From a virus (Duplodnaviria > Heunggongvirae > Uroviricota > Caudoviricetes), in IMG/VR virus record IMGVR_UViG_2576861193_000002: a stretch of 64,000 nucleotides of DNA. One strand, given 5' to 3'. Both the position numbers and the translations under genes were made by a program. The notes beneath the pieces were generated by a model that searched no databases, had not been told where the DNA came from, and saw only the letters and a program-made list of their open reading frames with translations. How positions within the stretch are numbered: position 1 is the first letter of the stretch; the number at the start of each line of letters is the position of its first letter. Positions 3,872 to 51,765 of the stretch are shown piece after piece.

Positions 3872-3875
3872 CCAG

Positions 3876-3957
3876 GATAGCGCCCGATGCGCAAGCGTAT
3901 CGGGCTACTCTTATGGAGGCCGGATAAGACGCGGCCAGCGTCGCATCCGGCAATCCC
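3876..3957. repeat. REP/BIME-type extragenic palindromes between convergent ttcA and dbpA
   Basis: GCCGGATAAGACGCGGCCAGCGTCGCATCCGGC-type imperfect palindromes. Confidence 0.5.
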
Positions 3958-3999
3958 GAATAAGATGTTTACTCTTGCACCCGGCAATTCAACATTTCA

Positions 4000-5373
4000 T
4001 TATTTTAATAACCGCACCCGGCACGTTTTTCCTTTAATCTTCCCGCCCTGTAACTGTTTCCATGCTTTATGAGCAACAGCCTGACGGACCGCGACATAGA
4101 CATGCGCCGGATGCACGGCGATTTTGCCAATATCTGCGCCATCAAGCCCGATATCTCCTGTCAGTGCACCTAATACATCACCCGGGCGCATTTTGGCTTT
4201 TTTCCCGCCATCGATACACAACGTTGCCATTTCTGCTTCCAGCGTCGCAATGGAACTATTAGCTGGCGGCGTTTGCCAGTTAAGTTTTATCTGCAACATG
4301 TCAGAAATGATATTGGCCCGCTGTGCTTCTTCCGGAGCACAGAAACTGATCGCCAGACCGCTATTTCCTGCACGAGCTGTACGACCGATGCGATGTACAT
4401 GAACTTCAGGGTCCCACGCCAGCTCAAAGTTCACCACCAGCTCAAGCGATTTAATATCCAGACCACGCGCAGCAACATCAGTCGCGACCAGTACACGGGC
4501 GCTACCGTTAGCAAAACGTACCAGGGTCTGATCGCGATCGCGTTGCTCCAAATCGCCGTGTAATGACAATGCACTTTGCCCTACTTCATTCAGCGCGTCG
4601 CAGACAGCCTGGCAATCTTTTTTGGTATTGCAAAACACCACGCAAGAGGATGGCTGATGCAAGCTTAATAACCGTTGCAACAGAGGAATTTTGCCTTTGC
4701 TGGATGTCTCATAAAATTGTTGTTCAATGGGTGGCAAAGCATCTGTTGAGTCAATTTCAATCGCCAAAGGATCGCGTTGCACTCGTCCGCTGATTGCAGC
4801 GATGGCTTCCGGCCAGGTTGCCGAAAACAGAAGCGTCTGTCGAGATGCAGGCGCAAAACGGATGACATCATCAATGGCATCGCTAAATCCCATATCCAGC
4901 ATGCGGTCGGCCTCATCCATCACCAGCGTATTCAACGCATCCAGTGATACCGTGCCTTTTTGCAGGTGATCCAGCAAACGCCCCGGCGTTGCCACGATAA
5001 TATGCGGCGCATGTTGCAACGAATCACGCTGCATACCGAACGGTTGACCACCGCACAACGTCAAAATTTTGGTATTTGGCAGAAAACGCGCCAGCCGACG
5101 CAATTCACCTGCCACCTGATCCGCCAGTTCACGCGTAGGACACAGCACTAAAGCCTGGGTTTGAAATAGCGACGCATCAATTTGCTGTAACAAGCCGAGG
5201 CCAAAAGCCGCCGTTTTGCCGCTGCCGGTTTTCGCCTGCACGCGAACATCTTTTCCGGCAAGGATCGCCGGAAGCGCGGCGGCCTGCACCGGCGTCATGG
5301 TTAAATAACCCAACTCATTAAGGTTCGTGAGTTGGGCGGGAGGCAAAACATTCAGGGTAGAAAAAGCGGTCAC
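4000..5373 (-). CDS. dbpA: ATP-dependent RNA helicase DbpA (DEAD-box)
   Basis: 457 aa; Walker A AKTGSGKT, DEAD box VMDEAD, SAT, HRIGRTAR motifs. Confidence 0.92.
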   Translation of the reverse strand: MTAFSTLNVLPPAQLTNLNELGYLTMTPVQAAALPAILAGKDVRVQAKTGSGKTAAFGLGLLQQIDASLFQTQALVLCPTRELADQVAGELRRLARFLPNTKILTLCGGQPFGMQRDSLQHAPHIIVATPGRLLDHLQKGTVSLDALNTLVMDEADRMLDMGFSDAIDDVIRFAPASRQTLLFSATWPEAIAAISGRVQRDPLAIEIDSTDALPPIEQQFYETSSKGKIPLLQRLLSLHQPSSCVVFCNTKKDCQAVCDALNEVGQSALSLHGDLEQRDRDQTLVRFANGSARVLVATDVAARGLDIKSLELVVNFELAWDPEVHVHRIGRTARAGNSGLAISFCAPEEAQRANIISDMLQIKLNWQTPPANSSIATLEAEMATLCIDGGKKAKMRPGDVLGALTGDIGLDGADIGKIAVHPAHVYVAVRQAVAHKAWKQLQGGKIKGKTCRVRLLK

Positions 5374-5402
5374 AATCTATTCTCGTGGTCATCGACGCAA
5401 AG

Positions 5403-7288: not shown

Positions 7289-9478
7289 TTATTCTTCGCT
7301 TCCGGTCAACTGCCGGACAAGCTCTTCAAGTTTTGTGATCCGTTCATCCATGACGGCAATGTTAGCTCGTAGGCTGGCATTCTCCCCTTCCAGTTCGGTG
7401 ACGCGGTTATCTGTTTCGTGTGCCACCTGGACAAGTAAGCCAGTCACTGCGGCATAATCAACATTGAGGTAACGCGATTCTTCGCGTAGCTCGTTGCCAT
7501 CAATGGTCGGCCCCTGCAACTCTTTGCCGTAATGAGTAAACGATCCAACAGCCTCCGGTAGCGCCTCCATAACCTCCTGAGCGATAACACCAGCGTAAGG
7601 CAGGCCGTTTTCCTTAAGGGTATAAGTGTACCCGTTCATTTTGCGGATGGCTTCAGTTGCGTTATTTATAACCTGAATGTTGTCTTTAAGGTCGCGATCA
7701 GATGATTGATTTACTGATAAGCAAGTAACGCTTCCAGACGCTTTAATATTTGTCACATCAAGTCTGTCGTTTGCAAAATTATATGAGATTGCTGTGCTTG
7801 TGCTTCCGGCATCATCATAATTGCTTTTATGAATAAACCAGTTTCCGCCATTAGCAATAAGGGTATAAGCTGGCGTGTTAGCCGGGCGATCTGTTTCATC
7901 AAATCTTATTGCAGGGTTAGCACTATTTATTTGCAAAGGTTTTTCAAGCGTTGATTTCAGTATCGCACTATCTACAATTAAATTACCTTCTGAGTTAAGG
8001 TTTAGATATTTTGAATCACCAGTTGAACCATTGTATACAAACCTTATTGTTAATTGACTTTTCCCTTCTGATAAAGTCTGAGCATACATATAAGCTGCAA
8101 GACGCAAATCGTCGTTAGTTGACAATAGTCTTGTGCGGAGGATTCCACTAGATGTGCCTACGTCTGTCGAATCACTATATTTATCAAGAAATAGACTATT
8201 AAGCTGAGGGCTATTATCCCTGCCCAACCCTAGATTAGTTCTGGCATTATCAAGGCTTGTCGCACCAGTGCCGCCTTGAGCAACGGCTAACGGTATCCAT
8301 TTTTTTTGCGTATCGCTGTAACAACCCCACGATGAGGCAGATAAACCAAGTCGCATAGAGTTGTCAGCGTTATATATCCATGTTTCGCTGCCCCACTCAC
8401 TAACCCTTTCGGTTGATACCATTTTTTTCCATGCGCTCCAACCTTGCCCGCCATACGACCTTCTGTAACTAATTTTCATATCGTTAAACAAATAATAGGT
8501 CTGCATGCACCCTTCTGAATCACCTGCGCCAGTTTTTTGCACTAACAATGAACCAGCAATCTGTATGGGGTAATTTAATTCAGGTTTTGCGTTTGCTGAT
8601 AATACTTGATGATAAAATCCTGCTGCGCTTCCTTTTAAGTCATCAAGATTCTGTCTATCGCTAAGGGTAGTTTTTGCATCATGCATAACCATTAGGTTTT
8701 TTCTGGCTTCTGCTGCGTTTCCAGCACCAGTACCGCCATACATAACGCCTAACTTAAGTGCCCCGGCGGTTGAATAAGCACCCCACCCAGCGTTATTAAC
8801 GAAGATGTAATTTTTATTTTCTCCGTCCCGCAACTGAGTTTCTTTTGAGGAACCACCATTTTGAAGCAAGCGATTTACTTCATCCTTGCGTGCGTGGCGT
8901 GTCCAGTTCTGGCCTGATGCTGCGACCCATGTATAAGTATAAAGTGATCGCGTAGACCAACCGACAAAGACGCCAGCATATGAAGGCGACGCATCCCGCT
9001 GACAGATAAATCCACTCAAAAATGATTCGCCAGCCGCTACGGAAGGAAAGCCCTTAGTCGTTTCCTTTATGCGCAAAAAGCCAACGTAAGAAGACGGATC
9101 GCCTGATATATCGACGCAATCTCGCGGCTCTGGACCCAAGCCAATATTGCTGCCATCTATTGCGCTTGATATTTCATCTTCCTTTTCCTGATAAAAACGA
9201 AGTGTTTCAGCTACATCCTGGGCAAGCCCATCAACTGAGATCGAATCAGAAAGCAGAATACTAAATTTTGTTCCGGCAGGGATGGCGGGGTTAGCCGCTG
9301 GCGTTACTGACAGTTCAGTACCGCTTTTAATTTCTGTGATGGTAAAGATCTGCACCGGATTGCCGATTGCAATGAGCGTGCAACCTACACGAATGAGAGA
9401 AAGCGGCGCGGAAAAGTTTGTTCCCGTGCCTGTAACAGTATTGCCATTAATGGCAATTGTTCCAGTTGTGTAAATCAT
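7289..9478 (-). CDS. side tail fibre/tailspike with C-terminal intramolecular chaperone (peptidase S74-like) domain
   Basis: 729 aa; C-terminal ...DLKDNIQVINNATEAIRKMNGYTYTLKENGLPYAGVIAQEVMEALPEAV... then coiled coil, resembling fibre self-cleaving chaperone domains. Confidence 0.75.
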   Translation of the reverse strand: MIYTTGTIAINGNTVTGTGTNFSAPLSLIRVGCTLIAIGNPVQIFTITEIKSGTELSVTPAANPAIPAGTKFSILLSDSISVDGLAQDVAETLRFYQEKEDEISSAIDGSNIGLGPEPRDCVDISGDPSSYVGFLRIKETTKGFPSVAAGESFLSGFICQRDASPSYAGVFVGWSTRSLYTYTWVAASGQNWTRHARKDEVNRLLQNGGSSKETQLRDGENKNYIFVNNAGWGAYSTAGALKLGVMYGGTGAGNAAEARKNLMVMHDAKTTLSDRQNLDDLKGSAAGFYHQVLSANAKPELNYPIQIAGSLLVQKTGAGDSEGCMQTYYLFNDMKISYRRSYGGQGWSAWKKMVSTERVSEWGSETWIYNADNSMRLGLSASSWGCYSDTQKKWIPLAVAQGGTGATSLDNARTNLGLGRDNSPQLNSLFLDKYSDSTDVGTSSGILRTRLLSTNDDLRLAAYMYAQTLSEGKSQLTIRFVYNGSTGDSKYLNLNSEGNLIVDSAILKSTLEKPLQINSANPAIRFDETDRPANTPAYTLIANGGNWFIHKSNYDDAGSTSTAISYNFANDRLDVTNIKASGSVTCLSVNQSSDRDLKDNIQVINNATEAIRKMNGYTYTLKENGLPYAGVIAQEVMEALPEAVGSFTHYGKELQGPTIDGNELREESRYLNVDYAAVTGLLVQVAHETDNRVTELEGENASLRANIAVMDERITKLEELVRQLTGSEE

Positions 9479-9612
9479 CGCAATGACTCCATTTTGTTAA
9501 TTAACGGAATAATTCTACCATTTTGTGATCTGTGTTGCATTTTATGCTTATACAAAATGTATATTATAATAAACAAAGCAACAAATACACACAATCTGAG
9601 TGGGGTGTACTA

Positions 9613-9831
9613 ATGAAAATGGTAACAATTATCGCTGTTGCGGCTATTCTGGTTGGTTGCGCTGACACTAATCGACACAACGGTCATTGTGCAACTAGCG
9701 CATACGGTGTCTGCTATGAAAGATGGGTTGATGGTGTAATGGTTCCTGCCGGGGAAATTTGTCGGGTGTATGATGGCACTGATGGCCATAGTGGCAAGAC
9801 TAGAGATTGCGGAAGTAAGGAGTGGTATTAA
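9613..9831 (+). CDS. small Cys-rich lipoprotein (candidate superinfection-exclusion / receptor-masking protein)
   Basis: Internal Met of ORF 9532..9831: MKMVTIIAVAAILVGC lipobox; 6 Cys in mature part; opposite strand to adjacent tail fibre. Confidence 0.55.
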   Translation: MKMVTIIAVAAILVGCADTNRHNGHCATSAYGVCYERWVDGVMVPAGEICRVYDGTDGHSGKTRDCGSKEWY

Positions 9832-10806: not shown

Positions 10807-13800
10807 TTACCAAACACCAATAATAATTTTACCACCACTAGGAAGATTTACCGTAATGCCGTTATTGTTAATAATTACCCGTCCGTCACTATTGCGTACA
10901 TCGAAATTTTGATTGCCTTTAACAATGACGTTACCCCTTACGGTGACTTCGTTGAATTGCGCCCATCCATCTTTGTTAATCATCCAACCTTTTGAGTCTT
11001 GAACAAATACGGTTGACTGGATTTGCTGCGCTATTTTTGCAGTACCGATAGATCCGTCTTTAATAAACGCTTCTTTAACATACATTGCATCATTGGTGGT
11101 ATAGAAAGGTGATGTGTATGTGCCGTTTGCTGCGGTCATCAACACGAAGCGGTCAACGAGGAAAATACACTGCGATTGAACGTTAGTGCCGCTACCAGTC
11201 AGCCCAAGAGACATACCTGTTGCATACTTCATGCCGTTGTTGTCGGTTGCCAGCTTGATAGAGTACGTCGCATCAACATTACCTTTGAAGTCGGTTAACG
11301 CTTTCGACGTCGTCTGTATCGCTGTTGTGTTCCCGTTAACGGTCACTGTTAGCTGATCGATTTTGCTTGATAATGCCTCGTCAGCCGTCGCCATTGCCTG
11401 CGACCATTCTGTAATATTTGAGTTTACAGAATCGAAAGACGCTGAGATCTGGCCAAATTTTTCCGCGCTTGATGCTTCATGCGTAGAAAGTGCCGTTGAC
11501 ACCTCTGATACCTTCGAATTAATCGTACTGGTAAGCGATGAGTTAAGACTACTGATTGCGTCAGTACGGGCCTTCGTTTCGTCTGCAATAGCCTTATCAA
11601 TACGGGTTACGTTACTTGTCACCTTACTATCAAGCGTGGAAATTGATGCGTTCACTCCGCTGATAGCCTGGGCGCGGGCGCTTGATTCGTCGGCAATAGC
11701 CTGATCCAGCCTGCTAACTTCAGATTCAGTGTTGTTTTCAAGCGTGCTAATACTTGCATTCACTCCACTGATAGCTTCAGTTCTTGCGCTTGTCTCATCT
11801 GCAATGGCTTTATCAAGACGGCTTATTCTTGAATCCGTTTTCTTGTCTAGCGCTGACACTGAGGCATTTACTCCGCTGATAGCCTCGCTGCGTGCGCTGG
11901 TTTCGTCTGCAATTGCCCTATCAAGGCGGTTGACGCTTGCTTCCGTCTTCCTATCAAGATCGGTGATCGATGCGTTTACGGAGCTAATGGCTTCCGCTGT
12001 GGCTTTTTTCTCCTCTGCTATAACATTGTCAATACGGTCAATTTGCGCGTTGGTTTCTTTGCGGCCTTTCTTGTATTGGGCCGTGAGAGTAACCCGCGTG
12101 TTGGTTTGAGCAATAGAGTTGTTGATAAGTGCGATTGAGGCGTTTTGCAGACTTGCTTTAGTCTGATTTATTTCGTCGCTGTTTTTGTCAACGTTATTTT
12201 CAACAGTGCCAAGCTCCGCGCTGATGCCCGATATTGCCTGTGCACGGGCGCTTGATTCATCTGCAATTGCCTGATCAAGACGTTTAACGCTGGCGTTTGT
12301 GCTATTTTCAAGCGTTGTTAAATCAGCTTTAACCTCTGTTATTGCGGCGCTTCTTGCCTGCGTTTCATCTGATATTGCTTTATCAAGACGGGAAACGCTC
12401 GCGTCAGTTTTGCTTTCAAGATTGCTTATTGAGGCGTTAACGTCGCTAATGGCCTGGGTGCGGGCACTGGTTTCATCTGCAACCGCTTGATCCAGTCTGC
12501 TTACTTCTGATTCTGTATTGTTTTCAAGTGTGCTAATACTTGCATTCACGCTACTGATAGCGTCTGTGCGTGCTTTTGTTTCGTCTGCTATCGCTTTATC
12601 AATGCGGTTAATGTTGCTTGTAACTTTGCCGTCAAGCGTGGAAATTGAGGTATTCACGCCGCTGATGGCTTCAGTTCTTGCACTGGTTTCATCTGCAATT
12701 GCCTGATCCAAGCGTTTTACGCTGGCGTCAGTTTTCTTGTCTAGCGTTGAAATACTTGCATTTACGTCGCTGATGGCTTGAGTCCGCGCGCTAGTCTCGT
12801 CAGCGATTGCTTGATCAAGGCGGTTAACGCTTGCGTCAGTTTTCTTATCAAGATTGCTTATTGAAGCGTTTACACCGTTAATAGCTTCAGCGCGGGCGCT
12901 GGCCTCGTCAGCTACTGCGCGCTGCACGTTAGAAATCTGACCTTTAAGGTTGGAGTCCATCGTATTCATTTCTGCTGTGATGGTTTCCAGTGATTCCGCT
13001 GTCGCTTTTTTCTCTTCAGCGATAACGTTGTCAATGCGGTCGATTTCCGCTTTAGTCTCTGTCCTGCCTTTCTTGTACTGAGCGGTAAGAGTTACGCGCG
13101 TGTTTGTCTGTGCAAGTGAGTTATTAATAAGAGCAAGTGACGCGTTTTGCAGGCTTGCTTTTGCTTGCGCCAGTTCGCTGCCAACTTTTTCGCTGGACAC
13201 TTCTAATGAGTCAATTCTTGCCTCATGCTGTCCAATATCATCGGCGTTTTCCTCAACCTTTTTATAAAGATCTTCCGTTTCTTTTTTCAGTGTGTCCGTA
13301 TCAGCTTTTATGGCCCCTGTTTCTGTGATTAGGCCGTCCGTATCAATCCTCAAATCGTCAGTGATGTTTGTCAGGTTGTCCGTGTCAACCCTCAAATCGT
13401 CAGTGATGTTTGTCAGGTTATCAGTTGCAGTTTTGAGGTTGTCGGTAGCAGTTTTAAGGTCATTTGTAGCGCTTTCGATAAGATCAGCGCGGTCGCCAAG
13501 ATCTTTAATGTCGCTAATCATCCCCTTAAACTGTTCTGAATTAATTACGTCTTTTGTGACGTAGTCGCTAATTTCATCGAAGTTTTCAGTTGGTTTGCCT
13601 GATGCCTCAACGAAATCTGACACGCCAAAAGCGTTACGTGTACGAATATAAACGTAATAGGTGTGCCCCGTGTTCATGCCGCCAAAAGTCCACTGATAGC
13701 CGCGCCCGGTAAACTGCGCTGATGTGGTTACTTTTGATGGATCTGTGATCTGGTTTTCACCTGCGAAGTAAAATTCGTATGCTGTATCAGTGGTCAGGGT

Positions 13801-15990
13801 TGTTTTGCTAATCGGATACACTGTTGCCTGGAAAACACCAGGAACCCAATTAACGCCGACCGGGGCCGCTGGTGCACCAATAACCAGGTCCACAATACTT
13901 TCCGCACCCTTCATGCCAGTGTCATTACGCCCGCGAATACCAAGCGTGTAGCTGCCAGTATCAAGGCCATAAAACTCATAGCGGTAATTCGTTGTTTCAT
14001 AAGTTGCCACCACGCGGCCTTCGGCGTTATATACGCGTATTTCAAAGGTCAGGCGATGCGTTGTCGTCTGTGTTTCCCATGTAGCGCGACATTGAACAGT
14101 TTCAGAACCAACATTTAACACCTTCAGGTTTTCAATGTTCGGCACGCGGAAGTGATTAAGCGTGTCGTTGTTTACCTCAAAGATTGCGCCTTCATCGACT
14201 ACAGCCTGTTTATGTGGGTCATGCTGTGCTGCCTCGATGGTGTACACGCTGTTGTTTTCAGTTTCTGCTACGCTGATGATTCGGCACAGGACGGGTTTTG
14301 CTGCGTCAGTTGATACAGCAAAAACAGTTCCGTTACGAATCCACGCGGGGGCGGCTGCAAGGGTGATATTGTTTCCGTTAACTCCGGTGATCTGGTGTTT
14401 TTTAAACTTGCCATCACTATCAAGTAAACTAATGGTATCGCCTGCGGCGATGTATTCCGAATCAACCTTATCTACCGTTATCACCTTGCCATTATTCGCC
14501 ACGATACGACCGCCAAAACGAGCGCCTGCGCGGTTATTGTCGAGTATCTCGATAATATCCCCAGGGGTGAAGTGAATTGCGTCGCGGGCCATTTTAAACG
14601 TGAATTTTGATGGTTCGCGTTTTGCTGTTTCTATCAGCCACTTGCCAGCGCGGTATGCCTGCCCGCGTGAAGTGCAACCGAAAGCCTCTAGCGTGGTTTC
14701 GTTATAACCATCGCGGGCGATCAATTCATCATCTGCCACGTATTCTTTTGATTGCTCCCAACCGTTTTCCGGGTCAGTCCATGACACGATAACTGCGTTG
14801 TAAGATTCTGCACGGGCAATACTTGAACGAGTAAACGCGCCATCAACAACGTTAGCATTCGTGATGGTAGCAATTGGATCTTGCGGTGCATCAATCATCA
14901 CCGTAAGGCGCTGCCCATCCCATAACGCGATACCACGGAACATGCCTGCGATATTGTCCAGTAAGTCGCGGGCGCTCATTTGCTCAGTTATGTAAGCATT
15001 AAGCGTCATGCGAGGTTCAAAGCCGCCGTAACCGTCGTTTACCAACTGGTCGCAGTATTGAGAAAGCGTATATAATGCGCCGTCGTCAACATCAATGTAA
15101 CCAGCATGACGTGCAAGCCCGAAACGTTCATTTTTAACCAGATACCGGAATAGCCACGCAGGGTTATTGGTGTACGCTTTTTTAAATCCACCTAGCCATA
15201 AACCTGAATACGTGCGCGTTTCAGGGTTATAGTTGTCAGGCACATCAACAATCAGTCCGCGCAGATGATAGGTGCGGGTAGGTGTATCAGTATACTGGTC
15301 ATGGTCAATTACAGCACCAGCTACAGCGGTATGAGGGTAAGACAGGTTATCGTCGATTATTTCGCTGTAGCTACTCCACCGCGTATCATTACGAAGAAGA
15401 TCGCTTTTGCTGTCTGCTGTTACGCGACGAACGCGAATATCAAACGGCTTTTCATCCGGCGCTTTGATAATGTGAGCTTCCAGATATTCACCGCTTTGTT
15501 TACCGGGACCAATGTGTATACCTTTAACCGGCGACCACGTAGAAGATGATGACGGTTTAACATCAACCACCAACATAACGGATGTATTATATTGATTGCC
15601 CTCATCATCTGACTGAACAAGAGCATCAACGCCAAGATTTAACCTTACGCGGGTAACGTTTGGATCTGAAACAGTCCTTATTATTGGCGTGTCGTGAGTT
15701 ACCTTTGCGTTGACAATAACGGTTGATTCGATGGCATTAAAACCATTAATCGGCGATTGGTCAGCCGTGCCGTTGCGCCAGGCTATACTAATCCCAGGAA
15801 TTGATGTGTTTCCGTTTGCGTCAGTGATAGGCGTGTCATTAAGCATTACGTTGTTTAATGGCGCATTCTGGTTAACTACTCCAAAAATTGGTCCTTCACT
15901 TAGAATATCTAAAACCCGATAAAATTGTTTATGAAACAAATTATCATTAAGCAAAGTTGGTGTTTTTGCTTTACCGCCGCCACTAGACAT
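10807..15990 (-). CDS. central tail fibre / host specificity protein J-like with ~650-aa tandem-repeat coiled-coil insertion
   Basis: 1727 aa; N-terminal ~850 aa resembles lambda J as recalled (YHLRG..V.NYNP.TR.YSG.W.G); aa ~870-1520 are 29-30 aa repeats (SARTQAISDVNASISTLDKKTDASVNRLDQAIADET). Confidence 0.85.
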   Translation of the reverse strand: MSSGGGKAKTPTLLNDNLFHKQFYRVLDILSEGPIFGVVNQNAPLNNVMLNDTPITDANGNTSIPGISIAWRNGTADQSPINGFNAIESTVIVNAKVTHDTPIIRTVSDPNVTRVRLNLGVDALVQSDDEGNQYNTSVMLVVDVKPSSSSTWSPVKGIHIGPGKQSGEYLEAHIIKAPDEKPFDIRVRRVTADSKSDLLRNDTRWSSYSEIIDDNLSYPHTAVAGAVIDHDQYTDTPTRTYHLRGLIVDVPDNYNPETRTYSGLWLGGFKKAYTNNPAWLFRYLVKNERFGLARHAGYIDVDDGALYTLSQYCDQLVNDGYGGFEPRMTLNAYITEQMSARDLLDNIAGMFRGIALWDGQRLTVMIDAPQDPIATITNANVVDGAFTRSSIARAESYNAVIVSWTDPENGWEQSKEYVADDELIARDGYNETTLEAFGCTSRGQAYRAGKWLIETAKREPSKFTFKMARDAIHFTPGDIIEILDNNRAGARFGGRIVANNGKVITVDKVDSEYIAAGDTISLLDSDGKFKKHQITGVNGNNITLAAAPAWIRNGTVFAVSTDAAKPVLCRIISVAETENNSVYTIEAAQHDPHKQAVVDEGAIFEVNNDTLNHFRVPNIENLKVLNVGSETVQCRATWETQTTTHRLTFEIRVYNAEGRVVATYETTNYRYEFYGLDTGSYTLGIRGRNDTGMKGAESIVDLVIGAPAAPVGVNWVPGVFQATVYPISKTTLTTDTAYEFYFAGENQITDPSKVTTSAQFTGRGYQWTFGGMNTGHTYYVYIRTRNAFGVSDFVEASGKPTENFDEISDYVTKDVINSEQFKGMISDIKDLGDRADLIESATNDLKTATDNLKTATDNLTNITDDLRVDTDNLTNITDDLRIDTDGLITETGAIKADTDTLKKETEDLYKKVEENADDIGQHEARIDSLEVSSEKVGSELAQAKASLQNASLALINNSLAQTNTRVTLTAQYKKGRTETKAEIDRIDNVIAEEKKATAESLETITAEMNTMDSNLKGQISNVQRAVADEASARAEAINGVNASISNLDKKTDASVNRLDQAIADETSARTQAISDVNASISTLDKKTDASVKRLDQAIADETSARTEAISGVNTSISTLDGKVTSNINRIDKAIADETKARTDAISSVNASISTLENNTESEVSRLDQAVADETSARTQAISDVNASISNLESKTDASVSRLDKAISDETQARSAAITEVKADLTTLENSTNASVKRLDQAIADESSARAQAISGISAELGTVENNVDKNSDEINQTKASLQNASIALINNSIAQTNTRVTLTAQYKKGRKETNAQIDRIDNVIAEEKKATAEAISSVNASITDLDRKTEASVNRLDRAIADETSARSEAISGVNASVSALDKKTDSRISRLDKAIADETSARTEAISGVNASISTLENNTESEVSRLDQAIADESSARAQAISGVNASISTLDSKVTSNVTRIDKAIADETKARTDAISSLNSSLTSTINSKVSEVSTALSTHEASSAEKFGQISASFDSVNSNITEWSQAMATADEALSSKIDQLTVTVNGNTTAIQTTSKALTDFKGNVDATYSIKLATDNNGMKYATGMSLGLTGSGTNVQSQCIFLVDRFVLMTAANGTYTSPFYTTNDAMYVKEAFIKDGSIGTAKIAQQIQSTVFVQDSKGWMINKDGWAQFNEVTVRGNVIVKGNQNFDVRNSDGRVIINNNGITVNLPSGGKIIIGVW

Positions 15991-18473: not shown

Positions 18474-18525
18474 TTTATCACCTTGTAATTTGTGATCGAC
18501 GTCACGCTAAATCATACCAAAACGG

Positions 18526-18554
18526 TTGATAGCGCTTTTTACAATATGTATATT
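18526..18554 (+). promoter_or_regulatory. sigma70-like promoter for plus-strand moron cassette
   Basis: TTGATA-17 bp-TATATT; overlaps palindrome TACAATATgtATATTGTA. Confidence 0.4.
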
Positions 18555-18570
18555 GTACTCAAAAGGAAGC

Positions 18571-18756
18571 ATGGTTAACAAAATGGCGCGGAGGTGTGAG
18601 ATGGTTGATAAGGTGTGGAGGTTGAAGGTATTCCTGGCGGATGGCAGGGAAATGACTGTAGCTCTGTATAAGGATGAAGGCGAGGCACTTACTGACGCGC
18701 TTTTACTCGCTGAAGACGAACGCGTTTTGGGGTACAGGATCGAACCCGTCAAATGA
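18571..18756 (+). CDS. moron hypothetical protein
   Basis: Internal Met of ORF 18526..18756; alternative start 18583. Confidence 0.4.
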   Translation: MVNKMARRCEMVDKVWRLKVFLADGREMTVALYKDEGEALTDALLLAEDERVLGYRIEPVK

Positions 18757-18768
18757 GGGTTTAACAAA

Positions 18769-19119
18769 ATGCAAAAATACAGCTTAGATGTGTGGACTGA
18801 TAAATGTGAATGGGAATGCATGGGCCTATTTGACACATATGCTGCGGCGCGTGATGAAGGTCGCGAATTACTTCTCTGTTGGTCTAACGCTCGTGATTTT
18901 GATATTACTCCGGTCCAAGTACCGGATAAGGTGGAAGAGATGAACCCTAAAGATATTGATGTTAGCTTCAATGTTAACTTTGCTGACTCTATGGATCAGT
19001 CTTGCCCTGGTGAAATACACGCAAAAGGTTTCCCCGCTGACGATCCAGAAGCAAAACGCGAATACGAAAAAGCGGCAAAAGATTTCTGTATCGACAATTT
19101 GTCTGCGTTCGATAAATAA
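18769..19119 (+). CDS. moron hypothetical protein (116 aa, acidic)
   Basis: ORF with GAGGG RBS; no recognised domain. Confidence 0.5.
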   Translation: MQKYSLDVWTDKCEWECMGLFDTYAAARDEGRELLLCWSNARDFDITPVQVPDKVEEMNPKDIDVSFNVNFADSMDQSCPGEIHAKGFPADDPEAKREYEKAAKDFCIDNLSAFDK

Positions 19120-19128
19120 GGCGGCAAC

Positions 19129-19377
19129 ATGGGGCGGCGCAATCACGGTGATTATGTGTACACGTTGAAACAGGCCGCCCGCCTCATCGGTTATCATGAG
19201 CACGAATTTATTGATTTGCTGATCGAGCGCGGGATTTTGTATCAGGTTTGTTTAACGCTGTACCCGAAAGCTAAGTACCTACAAGAAAAGTTATTCATCA
19301 TTATGACGGATGAAAACCAGGTCAATCACTCATTCGTCACTGATAAAGGCGTTAATTATCTGCGTGATAACTTATAG
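19129..19377 (+). CDS. moron hypothetical protein, possible HTH
   Basis: 82 aa; YTLKQAARLIGYHEHEFIDLLIERGIL helix-turn-helix-like. Confidence 0.45.
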   Translation: MGRRNHGDYVYTLKQAARLIGYHEHEFIDLLIERGILYQVCLTLYPKAKYLQEKLFIIMTDENQVNHSFVTDKGVNYLRDNL

Positions 19378-20181: not shown

Positions 20182-20276
20182 AATTATAACCAGTTTACAA
20201 AATGGCTTCACATAAGGCGTGACAAGATGTATATAGTAAGCAAGAAGAAAAAGCAGTACCGACAAAGGGGGGCAAT

Positions 20277-20432
20277 ATGGAACGCTATGTGGTTGTGATG
20301 CTGAACAAAGCATTCGAACAGGTGGAAGTTGCGATTGTGAAGGGCTTTGATGATGCATTCAAATACGGTCAATTTATGATGAATGCGAAGGAAAATGAGT
20401 ACCGTGATTTCTTCCTAAAAGTAGTCAACTGA
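20277..20432 (+). CDS. small hypothetical protein (51 aa)
   Basis: AAGGGGGG RBS then ATG; MERYVVVMLNKAFEQ...; coordinates approximate. Confidence 0.3.
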   Translation: MERYVVVMLNKAFEQVEVAIVKGFDDAFKYGQFMMNAKENEYRDFFLKVVN

Positions 20433-20452
20433 TTGATTGCGTGGGGTGAGTT

Positions 20453-20707
20453 ATGAAATTGGTAATGATTGGCAAAAACCTGAAAGCTCAGAAAAACGCG
20501 CCGGAACATGTAGTTAAAAAAGCAAAGGAACTTTTGAACGCGTTTTTAAACAAGAATGCGTCACCCAAAAAATTGAAAGACGGTTACGGCTACGCCTTCC
20601 GCGCCAATTTAGACTGGCGAGTCTATAGCCAGGATCTGAAGGAGTGGGTGATTGTTGAACACCATAAATTCAATGAATTGTCTGGCGTTCGCGGTTGCCA
20701 TAAGTAA
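20453..20707 (+). CDS. hypothetical basic protein (84 aa)
   Basis: GGGGTGAG RBS; MKLVMIGKNLKAQKNAPEHVVKKAKELLNAF... Confidence 0.5.
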   Translation: MKLVMIGKNLKAQKNAPEHVVKKAKELLNAFLNKNASPKKLKDGYGYAFRANLDWRVYSQDLKEWVIVEHHKFNELSGVRGCHK

Positions 20708-20794
20708 GGCGGGATATGGATGACGATAAATTCACCCGGCGGGAGATCTGGAATATTTAGTTGGTGATTTTCGTGAGGGGATATATCTCGCGGA

Positions 20795-21754
20795 ATGGTC
20801 GGATATAAAATGGGTGTGATTATGGCGCGAAAAATGACACATGAAGAACATATTGCAGATATAGCAAATGTCAATCCTCGTGTTGATATTTTAGGAGAAA
20901 TTACAGGCTGCAATGATAAGGTGTCGTGTCGTTGCAGAGTTTGTAACCACAAATGGCGTACTACGCCGCACAGCCTTAAGGCTGGCAGGGGCTGCCCCGA
21001 ATGTAAAAGAACAAAGATAGCACGAATAAAACAACTATCACATAACGATCATGTTGCTGCAATTGCTAATGTTAATCCATTTGTTGAAGTGCTAGAAAAA
21101 ATTGTTAATGTAAAGAAAAAGATCGCATGTCGTTGTAATAATTGCAAAAACATATGGATGACTACGCCAAATGATCTCAAAAACGGTCACGGCTGTCCGA
21201 AATGCTCTGGCGTAGCGAAGCTGTCACATGAAGAGCAGATTGCAGCTATTGCGAAAGTTAACCAAAATGTTGATGTAATAGGCAATATTGTTAATGACAA
21301 AACAAAAGTATCATGCCGCTGCAAGGCTTGCGGTCATGTGTGGTCGGCTACGCCTAACGACCTTAAAAATGGGCGCGGCTGCCCGAAATGCGCGAAACGA
21401 GGGTTTTTATCCCACGAACACGGAAAACTTTACATCATGGTTGATGATCTTGAAGTGCCAACAATGATGAAAATCGGCGTGAGCGTTAAGGAGAACGAGC
21501 GAAGAAATAAAGTATTAAAAAGCGCACATAAAGCAGGTGTCAGAATCCCTGATTTGTATGTCGTGAAAACGTGGGTGGGGCCAACTGAAAAAGTACAAGA
21601 ATTAGAAAGCACGATGCATAAGGCTTTTAGCAATTATAAAATTAACTTCCCTGTAAAATTTGATGGCAGTAATGAATTTTTCTACTACAGGCCGGAAGTA
21701 TTCAGCATGGTAGAAAGTACATACAGTGATATTGTAAATAAAAATGCGGCATGA
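20795..21754 (+). CDS. triple zinc-ribbon + T5orf172 (GIY-YIG-like) domain protein
   Basis: Three ~57-aa repeats each with CRCxxC...GxGCPxC; C-terminus GKLYIMV..MKIGVS..ERRNKVL...ESTMHKAF...NEFF matches T5orf172 pattern. Confidence 0.6.
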   Translation: MVGYKMGVIMARKMTHEEHIADIANVNPRVDILGEITGCNDKVSCRCRVCNHKWRTTPHSLKAGRGCPECKRTKIARIKQLSHNDHVAAIANVNPFVEVLEKIVNVKKKIACRCNNCKNIWMTTPNDLKNGHGCPKCSGVAKLSHEEQIAAIAKVNQNVDVIGNIVNDKTKVSCRCKACGHVWSATPNDLKNGRGCPKCAKRGFLSHEHGKLYIMVDDLEVPTMMKIGVSVKENERRNKVLKSAHKAGVRIPDLYVVKTWVGPTEKVQELESTMHKAFSNYKINFPVKFDGSNEFFYYRPEVFSMVESTYSDIVNKNAA

Positions 21755-21794: not shown

Positions 21795-24002
21795 TTATCT
21801 TTTTCGTGGCTGTATAATCCCCCCGGGGCGCGTGCTCTGCTCCCTCACAACACCCATAGCAACCTTCTTCATCGTCTCTTGCAGTTTGGCGCTGTCCTGC
21901 TCGGTCCATCCGTTCTCGGCTGTTATGTTGATGGTAACAGGCATGTTGATGCCGCCACCGCCGCCAATGTCGCGATTTGGTATTACCCTGCCGTTGTCAC
22001 CCGGAATCATGTACTGCTCGCCGTTTCGAGATTGGAAGATCTCTGGCTTGCCGTGCTCGCCAACCCTATAAAGATTATTGCTATTAACCGCACCGCCGTT
22101 ATAACGAGCGCCAGCAAGCCCAAGCGCCTTAGCCCCAGCCACACCAGTGGCAAGACTCGTGCCCCCCACGGTCGCCGCTCCGCCCATCGTGGCAACGTTT
22201 GCCAGGTATGCAGGAGTGGCCCACGCAGATCCTAATGCAGTAGCCTCGGCTAGTGCTTTAGCTGTTGCCGCAGCGCTGGCGGCCTCACCGATCAATTGCT
22301 GTTTAACCCATTCAGCCCCCATTTGAACAAGTGTACCGATAACGGAGGAAAGGATTGTATTGCCAATGTTAGCCAGCGCCTGCTGCCAACTTTGAGTGCC
22401 GTTAACCAGGCCCACAAGCGCATTTGTTGCAGATCCTCCCATTGCATCAACGGTATCACCCAATAGTTTGTAGCTCATTGACTGTGCTTTATATCGCTCC
22501 CATTCAATGGAGATCATTTCTTGTGCGTGCGCTCTTTCTTGCTCCTTCATGTATTGCTCGGTAGCGCCAAGATCTTCCAGCATTTGCTTGCGTATGGTCC
22601 ATTCATTTTGCGCCTGCTGTATTGGGTCCAGCTCGCCGCGCTTCTGATCCAGTGATGAAATCATTTTGTCCCATTTTTCTTGCAGCCTATTGATCGGGTC
22701 GTTAATTTCTGCTAGAGTTTCGCGCAATTCATCACCAATTCCCTTCATTGCGCCTTTGTATTCAAGCATGGTTATTTTCCCGGCTTTAAAGGCTGCATCT
22801 ATGGCTTTTTGTGATTCAAGCGCTTTGCGCATTGCTGCTGAATCTTCGTTGTATGCATCTGAAATGCGCACACCCTGTTCCGCAAGGCGCTCGGCTTCTG
22901 ATTTGCCGGATTTTTTACCTTTGCCTTTATTACCCTTGCCACCAGGTTGAGGCTTAAATGTTATGCGACTTACACCAGCTTGCCCCGTGGGGAGAGTGGA
23001 AACAAATGGCTGTTCTCCATCGCCAAACCATCCAACCTGTTTTGCTTGAGCGCGGAACAAACTAAGCCCAGGCACTATACCCTCAAACGCCCCAGCCAAT
23101 AGCCACAATTTGTCAGTTAATGACGTGCTGTCGCTCGCCAGGGACTTAAACCAGCCGGATAATATTTGGACTTCACTAGAGATAGCTTGTATACCAGTAA
23201 CCACCAAATCGGACACGCCAAGCGTTTGATTTAGCGTGTCGATTAGCAGATCGAAGTTGTTTTTTAGCTCGTTAAATGCCTGATCTGTTGTTGTTGGCAG
23301 CTTTGCGAAGTCCTTCTCTATGTCTTCTGCGCCAGCAAGAATTGCGTTGGTAACATCCTCAGCGGTGAGCTTACCATCAAGCATTCTTGCGCGAAGTTCA
23401 CCCATCGAGATTCCCATTTGTTTGGATACGCGCCGCCACACCTCTGGCATGTTTTCAAGTACAGAGTTGTATTCTTCCGCGCGAACAATGCCGCCCGTCA
23501 GTGACTGCCCTAACTGGCGAAGTGCGTTTGACATTTCATCTGATGAGCTACCACCGATACGCCCTATTTTTTGAAGCGAGTCGGTAAGCTGCAATACCTG
23601 CTGACTTGTCGCACTGGTATCCTGAAGGCTGGCCTTCAGGCTTTCCCACAGCTTCCCGGTGCTTTGAACGCTCATCCCTGTACGATTCGATATCTGAATA
23701 ATCCCGTCAAAATTCGATTTTGCGTCAGCAATGCCACTCGACAGGCGCGTCACCCTGGCACGAAGCAGATTTACGTTATCCGCGATCTCCAGGAATTTTT
23801 TTGCAGCCATAACCATCATCCCAATGTTCACAGCTTTAGATAAATTACTTATTGTGGTGTTAAGTGACTTTACTGATTTATCGGTGCGTTTAGCGCCTTG
23901 CTCGATTTTATCAAACGAGTCTTCAGCCTTGCGTTGAGCTACAAGTAACCGTTCGGTTTTTGCGTCAACGGTATATTCGATCGTGCCTACATTTGTGGTC
24001 AT
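21795..24002 (-). CDS. tail tape measure protein
   Basis: 735 aa; alpha-helical, Gly/Ala-rich C-terminal segments; between G/T and M. Confidence 0.85.
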   Translation of the reverse strand: MTTNVGTIEYTVDAKTERLLVAQRKAEDSFDKIEQGAKRTDKSVKSLNTTISNLSKAVNIGMMVMAAKKFLEIADNVNLLRARVTRLSSGIADAKSNFDGIIQISNRTGMSVQSTGKLWESLKASLQDTSATSQQVLQLTDSLQKIGRIGGSSSDEMSNALRQLGQSLTGGIVRAEEYNSVLENMPEVWRRVSKQMGISMGELRARMLDGKLTAEDVTNAILAGAEDIEKDFAKLPTTTDQAFNELKNNFDLLIDTLNQTLGVSDLVVTGIQAISSEVQILSGWFKSLASDSTSLTDKLWLLAGAFEGIVPGLSLFRAQAKQVGWFGDGEQPFVSTLPTGQAGVSRITFKPQPGGKGNKGKGKKSGKSEAERLAEQGVRISDAYNEDSAAMRKALESQKAIDAAFKAGKITMLEYKGAMKGIGDELRETLAEINDPINRLQEKWDKMISSLDQKRGELDPIQQAQNEWTIRKQMLEDLGATEQYMKEQERAHAQEMISIEWERYKAQSMSYKLLGDTVDAMGGSATNALVGLVNGTQSWQQALANIGNTILSSVIGTLVQMGAEWVKQQLIGEAASAAATAKALAEATALGSAWATPAYLANVATMGGAATVGGTSLATGVAGAKALGLAGARYNGGAVNSNNLYRVGEHGKPEIFQSRNGEQYMIPGDNGRVIPNRDIGGGGGINMPVTINITAENGWTEQDSAKLQETMKKVAMGVVREQSTRPGGIIQPRKR

Positions 24003-24010
24003 GATTGCTA

Positions 24011-24080
24011 CTCCAGTTTTGTGATCTGTGTCTCTATTTTATACAAAATGGCTTTACTTCAGCGACTCCATTTTGTATAA
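24011..24080 (+). promoter_or_regulatory. regulatory region with perfect 12-bp inverted repeat TATACAAAATGG-N16-CCATTTTGTATA
   Basis: Upstream of plus-strand lipoprotein moron; TTTTGTGATCTGTGT box shared with 9518-9535. Confidence 0.45.
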
Positions 24081-24319
24081 GGAAGCCATAGGGAACAGTT
24101 AAGAAATCAAACAAAAACGAGGTGAATTATGAAAAGTTTAATCAACAAAATTCTGGTGGTTGCCATTGCTCTTGCAATCTGTGTGCACATGACCGTGCTT
24201 TACTGGCAAGCTCCAAATGCAATGCTCATGATGCAGATCGCAGGTCAAAAGGCGTTCATCCCTGGCTGGGGTGCGCTGGATGCTTTAATCCGCTGGTTTA
24301 TGGCTTAAAGGTGCTAATT

Positions 24320-24694
24320 ATGAAAAACGTATTAAAAGCCGCGCTGATTGGTGTTATTGCTCTGTCGCTCGCTGGGTGTGCAAGATCAACTGATTTTGTT
24401 AGGTTGGCTGATAATAAGTTGCAGGCTGGAATGACTTGCGAGCAGGTTACTAAAATCATGGGTGAGCCTCAAAGGATTGAGTATGACGGTAAGTACAGCT
24501 ATCACGTATGGTGGTCGGTAACAAGTACGGTAGGTTTTACATACATGGATGTTGAAGAGTTATCCCCTTCAAGGGTTATAGCGAAGTTTGATAATTGTAT
24601 TCTGAAAGAATGGAAAGATCGCAGCAAGGCGAAGACTGTATATGGCACAATTACTCACAGCTCACCAGGCGCTGCCGTCAAAGATTTCAATTAA
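24320..24694 (+). CDS. moron lipoprotein, possibly BamE/SmpA-OmlA-like fold
   Basis: Internal Met of ORF 24122..24694: MKNVLKAALIGVIALSLAGC lipobox; GMTCEQVTKIMGEP motif. Confidence 0.55.
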   Translation: MKNVLKAALIGVIALSLAGCARSTDFVRLADNKLQAGMTCEQVTKIMGEPQRIEYDGKYSYHVWWSVTSTVGFTYMDVEELSPSRVIAKFDNCILKEWKDRSKAKTVYGTITHSSPGAAVKDFN

Positions 24695-24700
24695 AGAAAG

Positions 24701-24727
24701 GCCCGGCTAATTCCGGGCTTTTTGTTC
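24701..24727 (+). terminator. rho-independent terminator after lipoprotein moron
   Basis: GCCCGGctaattCCGGGC + TTTTTGTTCTTT. Confidence 0.55.
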
Positions 24728-25399
24728 TTTGGATTTTTTTAGTCTTTCCAGCACCTCCATAGCCTCCCTCATTCCATCGTCATAAGCCTTTTTATCAAGC
24801 AATACATTTGGTCGTTTTTGTTTGTTTCTTGCTTCTTGCGGCGTTTTGGCGCGTACTGCGGCCCTGTATCCGGTCATTGTCATGCCCCATGCTTCTGATT
24901 CAGATAGCCCCAGGTGAGCAACGGCGGAGTAAACATATTCAAGGATGTCGAATGTTGGCTTGTACTCGCCTTCCTGGGTTGTGACCGTGTCTTCTTCTGG
25001 ACCGTCACCAATTAAACCGTGATACATACAGTGTTGCGCCAGTGTGATAACGTCGCTGGTGGGCATCAACCCAGGTTTTAGTCTCAACTTACCCGAAGGA
25101 GTGAAGCTGCATTCGCCCAATAACGGGCCTATTTCGTCCTCTGAGCAACATTTCAGGACGTGGATGGACGTTTGCACTAACTCACCATAACAACGCGCCA
25201 TAATGCGATTGCGGAGGTCTGGATCCGTTGGCAAACGCTGTGGGTATTTACCACCGTGCACAGTTGCGAAGTATTCAACTAATTCCCTGTCACTGCCGAC
25301 CTTAGCCATTGCAGCAAAGCAGGGGTTAAACACATACCGCCTGCCATCAACCACAACCGCAAATTGTCCTGTTCGAACATGGATCATAACTGTCACCAT
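24707..25399 (-). CDS. tail assembly chaperone (G/GT-like)
   Basis: 230 aa; position between major tail and tape measure genes; basic C-terminus. Confidence 0.5.
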   Translation of the reverse strand: MVTVMIHVRTGQFAVVVDGRRYVFNPCFAAMAKVGSDRELVEYFATVHGGKYPQRLPTDPDLRNRIMARCYGELVQTSIHVLKCCSEDEIGPLLGECSFTPSGKLRLKPGLMPTSDVITLAQHCMYHGLIGDGPEEDTVTTQEGEYKPTFDILEYVYSAVAHLGLSESEAWGMTMTGYRAAVRAKTPQEARNKQKRPNVLLDKKAYDDGMREAMEVLERLKKSKEQKARN

Positions 25400-43379: not shown

Positions 43380-43458
43380 TATACAAAATGGATACATCAG
43401 AACAAGGTGAATAGCGCCATTATGTGATCCACATCACGCAATGACGCCATTTTGTAAA
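43380..43458. promoter_or_regulatory. intergenic regulatory region with TATACAAAATGG / CCATTTTGTAAA and TGTGATccacATCAC palindrome
   Basis: 12-mer shared with 24039, 24067, 50996. Confidence 0.4.
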
Positions 43459-50994: not shown

Positions 50995-51087
50995 TCCATT
51001 TTGTATACTTTTTTAAAATATTTTATATGACATTGATATTTAAACAATAAATAACGTTTTCTGTTTACGTTTTGGTGTTTTCCAGGC

Positions 51088-51117: not shown

Positions 51118-51765
51118 TTATGGCAGGTTTACGATCTTCGCATCCACTACCACGCCTAAGATTTTTGATTCTGGATTCATAGGGATCGGCGGATACAGCG
51201 GATTCAGCGAACGCAAAAGTTTTCTACCTCCATCAATAATCAACTGTTTAAACGTCGGTATCTGCCCTTCCTCCAATTGGGCTATAACCAGTTTTCCGTC
51301 AATAGCTGGCGCGTGCGGATCGACAAGTATCATCGTCCCAGCTGGTATACTCAATCCTTGCGGCGCGTTCATTGATTCGCCTTTAGCTACCAGCCAATAA
51401 CTATCATCTGAACAAATAACGCTAGTAGTAACGTGTGGTAATGTTGATCGCCTTGCATCTTCCATATTGTTTACTACATCCTTCCAGTCAACAACCGGGT
51501 AACTGCCTAAATCACGCGGTGGCGCTCCAGGCAACGTGTTAGAAACAGAATCATCAATGACCATTCCATCATGTGTGACAGTGAACTGCCGACGCCCAAG
51601 CGCCCGCATAATCCGCGCAATGTCTTCAAGATTTGGCTCGCGGCGACCGTTAAGCCAGTGTGACAAGCCGCCTTTTGTGATCCCCATGAGATCTGCCAAT
51701 GAGTCCTGACTCATGCCCTGCGCCCGCATGAGTTGTTTTGCTAAGTCATACCATTTTGTTTTCAT
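51118..51765 (-). CDS. CI-like repressor (HTH + S24 LexA-like autopeptidase)
   Basis: 215 aa; N-terminal HTH; C-terminal S24 domain with GESM and catalytic Lys region. Confidence 0.85.
   Translation of the reverse strand: MKTKWYDLAKQLMRAQGMSQDSLADLMGITKGGLSHWLNGRREPNLEDIARIMRALGRRQFTVTHDGMVIDDSVSNTLPGAPPRDLGSYPVVDWKDVVNNMEDARRSTLPHVTTSVICSDDSYWLVAKGESMNAPQGLSIPAGTMILVDPHAPAIDGKLVIAQLEEGQIPTFKQLIIDGGRKLLRSLNPLYPPIPMNPESKILGVVVDAKIVNLP

Follow-up and report, generated by a model that had tools for sequence, protein, structure and literature searches.

The gene 15 element of phage HK97, reportedly studied by Cumby et al. in 2012, is the one for which the word 'moron' was coined. The product of this first moron, gp15, is a membrane protein with its origin in the chromosomal family YebO; it is expressed from the prophage and keeps other phages from bringing their DNA into the cell (PMC3594210). 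Small lipoproteins are also known to exclude phages, as do the Lpp proteins encoded by mEpimmI phages, a Nus-dependent, non-lambdoid group from human faeces that includes mEp013: type A Lpp excludes the OmpA-dependent mEp021 and mEp515, and type C Lpp excludes LamB-dependent phages and lambda, but not mEp013 (PMC11893012). Here we describe a gene for another small lipoprotein, located at 24320..24694 on the plus strand of the 64,000-nucleotide stretch of IMG/VR record IMGVR_UViG_2576861193_000002 (the window, hereafter). The window is a piece of E. coli chromosome, and the gene lies inside a tail operon, as the sequence-only reading of this DNA had proposed; it runs antisense to that operon, which belongs to an integrated prophage. 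That reading had treated the gene as a unit of its own, which has to be corrected: on the plus strand it comes second in an operon of two genes, and the whole cassette is a two-gene moron in the classical slot between 'chaperone' and tape measure genes of an mEpimmI-type E. coli prophage. The cassette and its flanks are composed as follows.

21795..24002, minus strand: tape measure gene, left flank of the slot (PF20155 TMP_3, 4e-52; phrog_1107, 3e-144)
24129..24308, plus strand: first cassette gene, for a 59-amino-acid (aa) small membrane protein with one N-terminal transmembrane helix; ribosome-binding site GAGGTG
24320..24694, plus strand: lipoprotein gene, second of the cassette; ATG at 24320, TAA at 24692-24694, 124 aa
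24377-24379, plus strand: codon of the predicted lipidated Cys20, which follows the signal peptide (aa 1-19) and precedes the folded domain (about aa 26-103) and a disordered C-terminal tail
24696..24728, plus strand: GC-rich intrinsic terminator directly past the lipoprotein stop, made of a hairpin (24696-24723) and a T tract
24707..25399, minus strand: DUF6246 gene, right flank of the slot (PF19759, 9e-56; phrog_791, function unknown)

The cassette has features by which morons are recognized. It is extra DNA of variable content between adjacent genes, and its base composition differs from that of its neighbours (GC 0.42 versus 0.46-0.51 in the flanking tail genes, a modest difference). Of transcription signals of its own, the terminator is clear, while the promoter is a candidate, a 9/12 match that the promoter scanner missed, although it is conserved and recurs at other sites. 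Like HK97 gp15, it sits in this slot, would form an independent transcription unit, encodes a small envelope-targeted product and has its origin in a chromosomal family, BamE-like lipoproteins here and YebO for gp15; the 59-aa single-pass membrane protein also resembles gp15 in kind. The two elements share no sequence kinship, and no YebO match was found for the cassette. They differ in that the cassette is antisense to the late genes, comprises two genes and has a predicted outer-membrane lipoprotein as its conserved gene, whereas gp15 is an inner-membrane protein; moreover, exclusion has been shown for gp15 and is only proposed for the cassette.

The lipoprotein gene is real and under strong purifying selection. 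The open reading frame (ORF) is not a chance one, because its product matches phrog_18614 over its full length (E 1e-54) and because dN/dS is 0.06-0.13, at dS 0.7-1.2, among seven gapless homologous genes. Most amino-acid changes among the homologues fall in the signal peptide, and residues ~72-103 are almost invariant, K103S in P0007 being the sole exception. A ribosome-binding site, AAGGTG, lies 6 nt 5' of the ATG. The N terminus reads MKNVLKAALIGVIALSLAGC, followed by ARSTDFVRLADNKLQAGMTCEQVTKIMGEPQRIEY (which begins ARST). PROSITE PS51257 describes lipoprotein precursors by a charged n-region, an uncharged h-region, a lipobox [LVI][ASTVI][GAS]C and a cysteine at position 15-35; by direct reading, the protein has K2 and K6, an uncharged stretch at positions 10-15, S-L-A-G-C and Cys20, its h-region reading IGVIAL before SL-A-G-C. 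The lipobox LAGC (aa 17-20 of 124) that the sequence-only reading had pointed to is therefore well founded, and its Cys is invariant across all 29 aligned relatives. When all ORFs of the window were scanned for a lipobox, three candidates only were found: this gene, lpp (9613..9831) and the Rz1 o-spanin gene (36252..36446). The Ala at +2 predicts, by the Lol avoidance rule, that the protein is sorted to the outer membrane. The terminator that had been claimed for the gene was also recovered, with a hairpin dG of -20.4 kcal/mol (z = -3.4; 0/200 shuffles fold equally well) followed by a T run, and ARNold terminator T16 is annotated at the corresponding place in mEp013. Since the hairpin overlaps the stop codon of the minus-strand DUF6246 gene, which ends at 24707, it serves both convergent genes; on the minus strand its terminator-like reading is weaker.

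Profile comparisons and a structural model place the lipoprotein in the BamE/OmlA/OsmE/BLIP fold superfamily. It is not a BamE orthologue, because it misses the Pfam cut-off for BamE (SmpA_OmlA, PF04355): its best Pfam match is indeed BamE, but at 17.9 bits, below the gathering threshold of 23.2 bits, and with only aa 32-50 aligned. The GMTCEQVTKIMGEP motif lies at aa 37-50, just where the sequence-only reading had placed it. P0010, a homologue 48% identical, has no Pfam BamE match at all. An exhaustive HMMER search of 1.84 billion representatives gave 23 matches, one of which is P0010; the remaining ones are short lipoproteins, several of which exceed Pfam's BamE cut-off. The phage-clade profile aligned by hhalign with these BamE-positive relatives at 99% probability (E 2.9e-18, residues 3-103). 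A first structure prediction from the eight close homologues alone was unusable (pLDDT 43). The AlphaFold model from a 29-sequence alignment that includes the distant relatives reaches pLDDT 71, and 80-94 in the core, and is laid out as two helices, a sheet with an extra hairpin and a disordered tail. With this model, the best Foldseek matches in the PDB were BamE (5wam, 5d0q and others), OsmE (4dm5), BtiO (9uu1) and BLIP, at a probability of 0.9-1.0 (about 1.0 for BamE and OsmE), and the top matches had a TM score normalised to the target of 0.43-0.58; the best matches among viral structures (BFVD) were SmpA/OmlA lipoproteins of other phages. A profile search of the PDB found OmlA 2pxg as the best match (E 1.4e-3, aa 24-101) and also BamE. 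The BLIP-II entries at the top of the PDB profile matches were discarded as spurious, being the sum of six tiny 'GKVxxWG' matches to RCC1-like repeats. A single-sequence search of the PDB with the lipoprotein gave no match, and matches in NCBIfam were weak and far below threshold (OsmE, E 0.033, 14.1 bits against a 65-bit cut-off; also YgdI/YgdR and LptM). The BamE/OmlA likeness reported by the sequence-only reading thus stands at the level of fold and superfamily, and neither of the two findings that it had said would speak against it, a missing signal peptidase II site or a missing BamE-like structure, was obtained.

BamE/OmlA and OsmE share with the lipoprotein a length of ~110-125 aa, two helices on an antiparallel sheet, and the helix motif G-M-T-x-x-Q-V-x-x-x-(M/L)-G-x-P. 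Identity to solved BamE structures is only 14-18%, and the lipoprotein differs from BamE by an inserted hairpin and a Cys40/Cys93 pair, and in being phage-borne rather than the host's BAM subunit. Both cysteines are invariant in the phage clade, P0010 included, and missing from the chromosomal relatives; they probably form a periplasmic disulfide made by DsbA. The nearest relatives outside the phage clade are chromosomal BamE-like or DUF3192-like lipoproteins of ~130 aa from Pasteurellaceae, Vibrio and Endozoicomonas (P0015, P0032, P0033, P0037, P0040, P0044), which are 23-36% identical over ~65-80% of the length and share the domain layout, including a V-D-N-E-x-L-S...V-T-E-W-G segment. They differ by their housekeeping contexts, the absence of both cysteines and a helical C-terminal tail. 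Other phages encode lipoproteins of the same fold or family, annotated SmpA/OmlA (Pseudomonas phages B3 and PP9W2; Flyfo siphovirus Tbat2_3), but these belong to other phage lineages and are at most 30% identical; our literature search found no functional study of them. The Tbat2_3 protein is 29.5% identical over 90% of the query, and its gene belongs to a group of cargo genes that follows the tape measure gene directly (3395-5378 of that locus, L011) and also includes a YafO toxin. The Tbat2_3 arrangement suggests that a BamE-like fold was recruited independently to the neighbourhood of a tape measure gene.

As cargo, the lipoprotein gene is of a familiar type, conserved though rare. It was found in 14/5,426 complete E. 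coli genomes and in 10 of 2.9 million IMG/VR contigs, a single-sequence search returned ~9 close protein clusters, all from E. coli and Shigella, and no member of the phage clade was present among 185,579 species-representative genomes. The 800 bp around it are 99% identical to mEp013, a temperate phage whose copy of the gene is listed as 'hypothetical' under the name mEp013_85. Comparison of the relatives shows that the junction between the tape measure and DUF6246 genes accommodates at least six different cargo sets, as listed here with the phage or locus in which each occurs; the lipoprotein is present in all but the last.

59-aa membrane protein: this window and mEp013
29-aa ORF and 219-aa lipoprotein with a VasI/TagO domain: most E. 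coli prophages
138-aa periplasmic protein: L021
91-aa plus 118-aa membrane-anchored protein: L015
29-aa ORF alone: L016
119-aa periplasmic protein, without the lipoprotein: mEp515 and E. coli strain 190

Among the relatives examined, the lipoprotein gene, where present, always comes last of the plus-strand genes ahead of DUF6246, and the cargo upstream of it varies. It is therefore the constant element of the slot, and its neighbours have been swapped among relatives. No empty slot was seen among the relatives examined, and all sizeable alternative cargo carries export or membrane signals. In a more distant phage, the same slot is occupied by P0010, which has kept the lipobox Cys. To our knowledge, the VasI/TagO family occurs elsewhere only as an accessory gene of type VI secretion system (T6SS) loci. 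The 219-aa VasI/TagO lipoprotein of the sister prophages (lipobox LVGC; PF11319, 1.2e-15) is phage-encoded in both L009 (5331-5990) and L017 (3608-4267), directly 5' of the BamE-fold lipoprotein gene.

In the window this upstream position is taken by the 59-aa ORF, which ends 11 nt 5' of the lipoprotein start. Its product has only two homologue clusters in 5.8 billion proteins and no Pfam, PHROG or PADLOC family match. The C-terminal tail, GQKAFIPGWGALDALIRWF, is conserved, and the last 20 codons show one non-synonymous and seven synonymous changes relative to a 68%-identical homologue. The gene is an independent module, since in one relative (L020) its homologue precedes a different secreted protein. 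We also considered that the ORF might be a remnant of the VasI gene of the sister prophages, but from the conserved promoter block to the lipoprotein start the sequences are unrelated.

Transcription of the cassette would start in the gap between the tape measure gene and the 59-aa ORF, where the following elements were found.

24017..24031, plus strand: conserved block TTTTGTGATCTGTGT, containing the CRP-like half-site TGTGA
24039..24051, plus strand: left arm of an inverted repeat, TTATACAAAATGG, ending 1 nt before the putative -35
24053..24081, plus strand: putative sigma-70 promoter TTTACT-17-TATAAG, read by eye, with 9/12 consensus positions
24068..24080, plus strand: right arm of the inverted repeat, CCATTTTGTATAA, overlapping the putative -10

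The 13-nt perfect repeat TTATACAAAATGG-N16-CCATTTTGTATAA (24039-24080) is the only strong one. The sequence-only reading was right that there is an inverted repeat but had given it to the lipoprotein gene, whereas it lies outside that gene, 5' of the 59-aa ORF and thus of the two-gene operon, and, like the promoter, is kept even in relatives that lack the lipoprotein. Both belong to the operon, or rather to the slot, and every E. coli relative, regardless of cargo, has kept the first 85 nt past the start of the tape measure gene. Two other explanations of the repeat were rejected: it is not a terminator, as no T run follows it on either strand, nor a significant RNA structure in the late transcript 5' of the tape measure gene, as the minus-strand fold of the region is not exceptional (z = -0.61). 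TTTACT-17-TATAAG is the putative cassette promoter; it was not reported by the promoter scanner because the scanner requires a T at position 6 of the -10, which in most relatives is TATAAA.

The arms of the repeat are copies of a more widespread motif, with the 9-mer core CCATTTTGT (complement strand ACAAAATGG), which occurs 14 times in the window, versus 1.05 expected, and never more than four times in 100 shuffles.

Copies of the 9-mer within the prophage: 9489, 9518, 18578, 20197, 24043, 24068, 27721, 31638, 43383, 43447, 50996, 51751 and 57668
Copy outside the prophage: 984

Three copies lie in the cI-cro intergenic region, beside a gene for a CI-like repressor (51118..51765), three lie 5' of lpp, and one is directly 5' of the -35 of a strong leftward PL-like promoter, TTGACT-17-TATATT. 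The layout of the cassette (motif, 1 nt, -35, 17 nt, -10) also occurs at 50996 (minus strand) and at 20193 (plus strand), where the motif stands 5' of another plus-strand island. More generally, the copies cluster in regulatory gaps, namely cI-cro, the PL-like promoter and the regions 5' of cargo islands and of lpp. The 9-mer could serve the mEpimmI repressor as its operator or be a promoter element common to these sites; were it the repressor's operator, either activation or repression of the cassette in the lysogen would be conceivable. The block TTTTGTGATCTGTGT has an exact second copy 5' of lpp, at 9521-9535 (two exact copies versus 0.21 expected), and in the cassette its centre is, by hand count, ~60.5 nt 5' of the predicted transcription start. 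CRP-like sites, also counted by hand, were seen as TGTGA-N6-TCACG at 18491-18506 and ~43420-43436 and as half-sites at 24020-24035 and 9524-9539. Where tail genes on the minus strand and cargo on the plus strand diverge, these sites sit just within the gap, and those at 18491 and 24020 are centred ~60-62 nt 5' of the predicted start, the position of class I activation.

Antisense cargo encoding a small outer-membrane lipoprotein in the structural module of a siphophage is already known from T5 Llp, Cor, Rtp45 and the mEpimmI Lpp (PF24052). These exclusion lipoproteins are of an unrelated family and fold, and the lipoprotein described here has no PF24052 match. Their genes adjoin and co-vary with the gene for the receptor-binding protein, whereas this one is next to the tape measure gene and occurs regardless of receptor type. 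The prophage has an Lpp in addition:

9613..9831, plus strand: lpp, for a 72-aa type-A Lpp exclusion lipoprotein (PF24052, Rtp45 family, 104 bits)

The presence of this separate gene rules out that 24320..24694 is the published mEpimmI Lpp. Our provisional assignment of the window's Lpp to type C was wrong; it is type A, 95.8% identical to the Lpp of mEp021 and mEp515. The region upstream of lpp (9478-9612) shares the exact 15-mer TTTTGTGATCTGTGT and the 9-mer motif with the cassette. Among six sequenced mEp phages, mEp013 alone carries the cassette. It is also the only LamB-dependent one of them that is not excluded by Lpp010 (PMC11893012), a tie that is probably a coincidence, and variation of the J protein is what the authors suspect behind this escape (PMC11893012).

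As to function, we lean, tentatively and somewhat short of calling it probable, to the proposal that the lipoprotein, by binding a partner in the envelope, protects the lysogen, most likely through superinfection exclusion, because of the HK97 gp15 precedent and because small mEpimmI lipoproteins have been shown to exclude phages (PMC3594210, PMC11893012). The anatomy of the cassette, the fold and the purifying selection, the swapping of exported or membrane-bound cargo in the slot, and the upstream sequence shared with lpp also count in its favour. Following established lipoprotein biology, the precursor would be exported by Sec, then acquire its lipid and be cut at Cys20 through the action of Lgt, LspA and Lnt, and, given its Ala at +2, would be sorted by Lol to the periplasmic face of the outer membrane. 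There the BamE-fold domain, whose fold binds proteins in its other members too, could dock on an envelope protein, either an outer-membrane receptor or porin, or the periplasmic path of an incoming tail. The lysogen would thereby be protected, most likely through heterotypic superinfection exclusion, as a second function independent of the prophage's own receptor-linked Lpp. Several observations weigh against this proposal. The cassette occurs with LamB-type (mEp013) as well as OmpA-type (this window) tail ends and, being present with both receptor types, is not a receptor-matched blocker of the Llp/Cor/Lpp kind. The mature lipoprotein is highly conserved and shows none of the marks of an arms race; an exclusion lipoprotein, lpp, is already present in the prophage; and the lipoprotein has no PADLOC match. 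In addition, the candidate promoter has just 9/12 consensus positions and is not called by the scanner, and, with the operator-like motif also found in the cI-cro region and beside the PL-like promoter, the cassette might be repressed in lysogens.

This last point leads to a different view of the cassette, in which it is repressed in the prophage and turned on early after infection or induction, the lipoprotein then masking a receptor, in the manner of T5 Llp, to spare progeny from being lost on cell debris, or otherwise readying the envelope for phage production. The repeat arms belong to a motif that the window contains 14 times (1.05 expected), with three copies in cI-cro and one abutting the -35 of the PL-like promoter in a cassette-like layout, so that it looks like a CI-type operator, and one arm overlaps the putative -10 of the cassette; expression could therefore equally be early-lytic. 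We nevertheless regard a lytic role as unlikely: a motif copy that abuts the -35 might just as well activate, as is known of lambda CI at PRM; morons expressed from the prophage typically lie antisense and have a terminator to themselves (PMC3594210); and the cassette is not coupled to receptor type. A role in envelope homeostasis, for which we would allow a marginally better chance while still thinking it rather unlikely, would have the lipoprotein dock on BAM (BamA/BamD) or act like OsmE; altered outer-membrane protein assembly or stress tolerance would benefit the lysogen, and effects on receptors would be indirect. That BamE and OsmE are the closest solved folds, that OmlA 2pxg and BamE are the best PDB profile matches and OsmE the weak top match in NCBIfam, and that the nearest relatives are chromosomal single-gene lipoproteins of Pasteurellaceae and Vibrio, some annotated as BamE, all fit such a role. 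It is less easily reconciled with the 14-18% identity to BamE structures, with a Pfam match that is below threshold and confined to aa 32-50, with the additional hairpin (aa 66-85) and two cysteines not found in BamE-positive relatives, or with the fact that E. coli has a BamE and an OsmE of its own. A further reading, which we consider improbable, makes the lipoprotein a phage-made BamE mimic or another decoy of envelope proteins that docks on a core machine of the outer membrane such as BAM and remodels which receptors reach the surface, from a slot promoter wired to the repressor motif and a CRP-like site; if true, it would mean that envelope remodelling is switched with the lysis-lysogeny state and with host physiology.

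Among the members of the fold family are also dedicated inhibitors of proteins, namely BLIP and BtiO, a T6SS immunity protein (9uu1, TMq 0.43, root-mean-square deviation 3.9), and most sister prophages pair the lipoprotein with a VasI/TagO lipoprotein (PF11319, 1.2e-15) of a T6SS-locus family. The lipoprotein might on these grounds be an orphan immunity protein that neutralises, by a BLIP-like fold, a periplasmic toxin of a competitor, such as a T6SS effector, a colicin domain or a lytic enzyme. We doubt this, as no effector, VgrG, PAAR or toxin gene is nearby or in the slot at any locus examined, the BtiO match is no better than those to BamE and OsmE, and the family is confined to one phage lineage, with no member among the species-representative genomes; moreover, the function of TagO/VasI is itself unknown (PMC13584744). 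Finally, the scarcity of the gene (14 E. coli genomes, 10 IMG/VR contigs and ~9 clusters) and its lack of a named family would be expected of a non-functional hitch-hiker or an annotation artefact, but with dN/dS of 0.06-0.13 at near-saturated dS, near-invariance of aa ~72-103, a Cys kept down to the 48%-identical homologue, and a good ribosome-binding site and terminator, we give this explanation hardly any credence. Protection of the lysogen, most likely by superinfection exclusion, remains our preferred reading.

The prophage, roughly 56 kb, is located between zntB and dgcM; the left end of the window holds left-end genes of Rac, ttcA, dbpA and zntB, and the right end a tyrosine integrase and dgcM. 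The prophage has a mosaic make-up, mEp013-like in the tape-measure region and mEp021-like at the tail-tip end. The cassette is ~8 kb from the central tail-fibre (J-like) gene (10807..15990, 1727 aa), which was identified by size and position only. Past the DUF6246 gene come tail tube and terminator genes, so that DUF6246, between the tail tube and tape measure genes, holds the place of the tail assembly chaperone. Of the neighbours that the sequence-only reading had named, the tape measure gene is supported by its PF20155 match, whereas the 'tail chaperone' is one by position only: family evidence is lacking, no PDB relative of the DUF6246 protein was found, and a search of the gene for a G/GT-type -1 frameshift revealed no long -1 extension, the sole slippery site being an A7 run 10 codons from the end. 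The cargo slot occupies the region where the usual 'T' extension would be. Two further antisense islands on the plus strand break the tail operon:

18507-19203, plus strand: antisense island
20277-21754, plus strand: antisense island, with the two genes that follow
20453..20707, plus strand: protein with a ParE-like toxin domain
20795..21754, plus strand: 319-aa protein with repeated treble-clef zinc fingers and a T5orf172/GIY-YIG-like domain, weakly similar to PADLOC PDC-S57

At the position of 20795..21754, mEp013 has a different gene, of 436 aa.

Prophage morons are among the main ways in which phages alter the cell surface of gut E. coli and its sensitivity to phages, and mEpimmI phages are reported to be as common in human faeces as lambdoid phages. 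An experimental system for this group is in place, made up of mEp013, lysogens of W3110 and expression plasmids based on pKQV4. A conserved slot in which secreted cargo is swapped, together with a motif shared with other regulatory regions, offers a handle on how such cargo is regulated. Absent a role in exclusion, the lipoprotein gene would be an ordinary hypothetical cargo gene. Should the lipoprotein indeed exclude phages, the few exclusion lipoproteins would gain a member with a new fold, and there would be a functional hint for the uncharacterised SmpA/OmlA proteins of other phages and for their chromosomal relatives.

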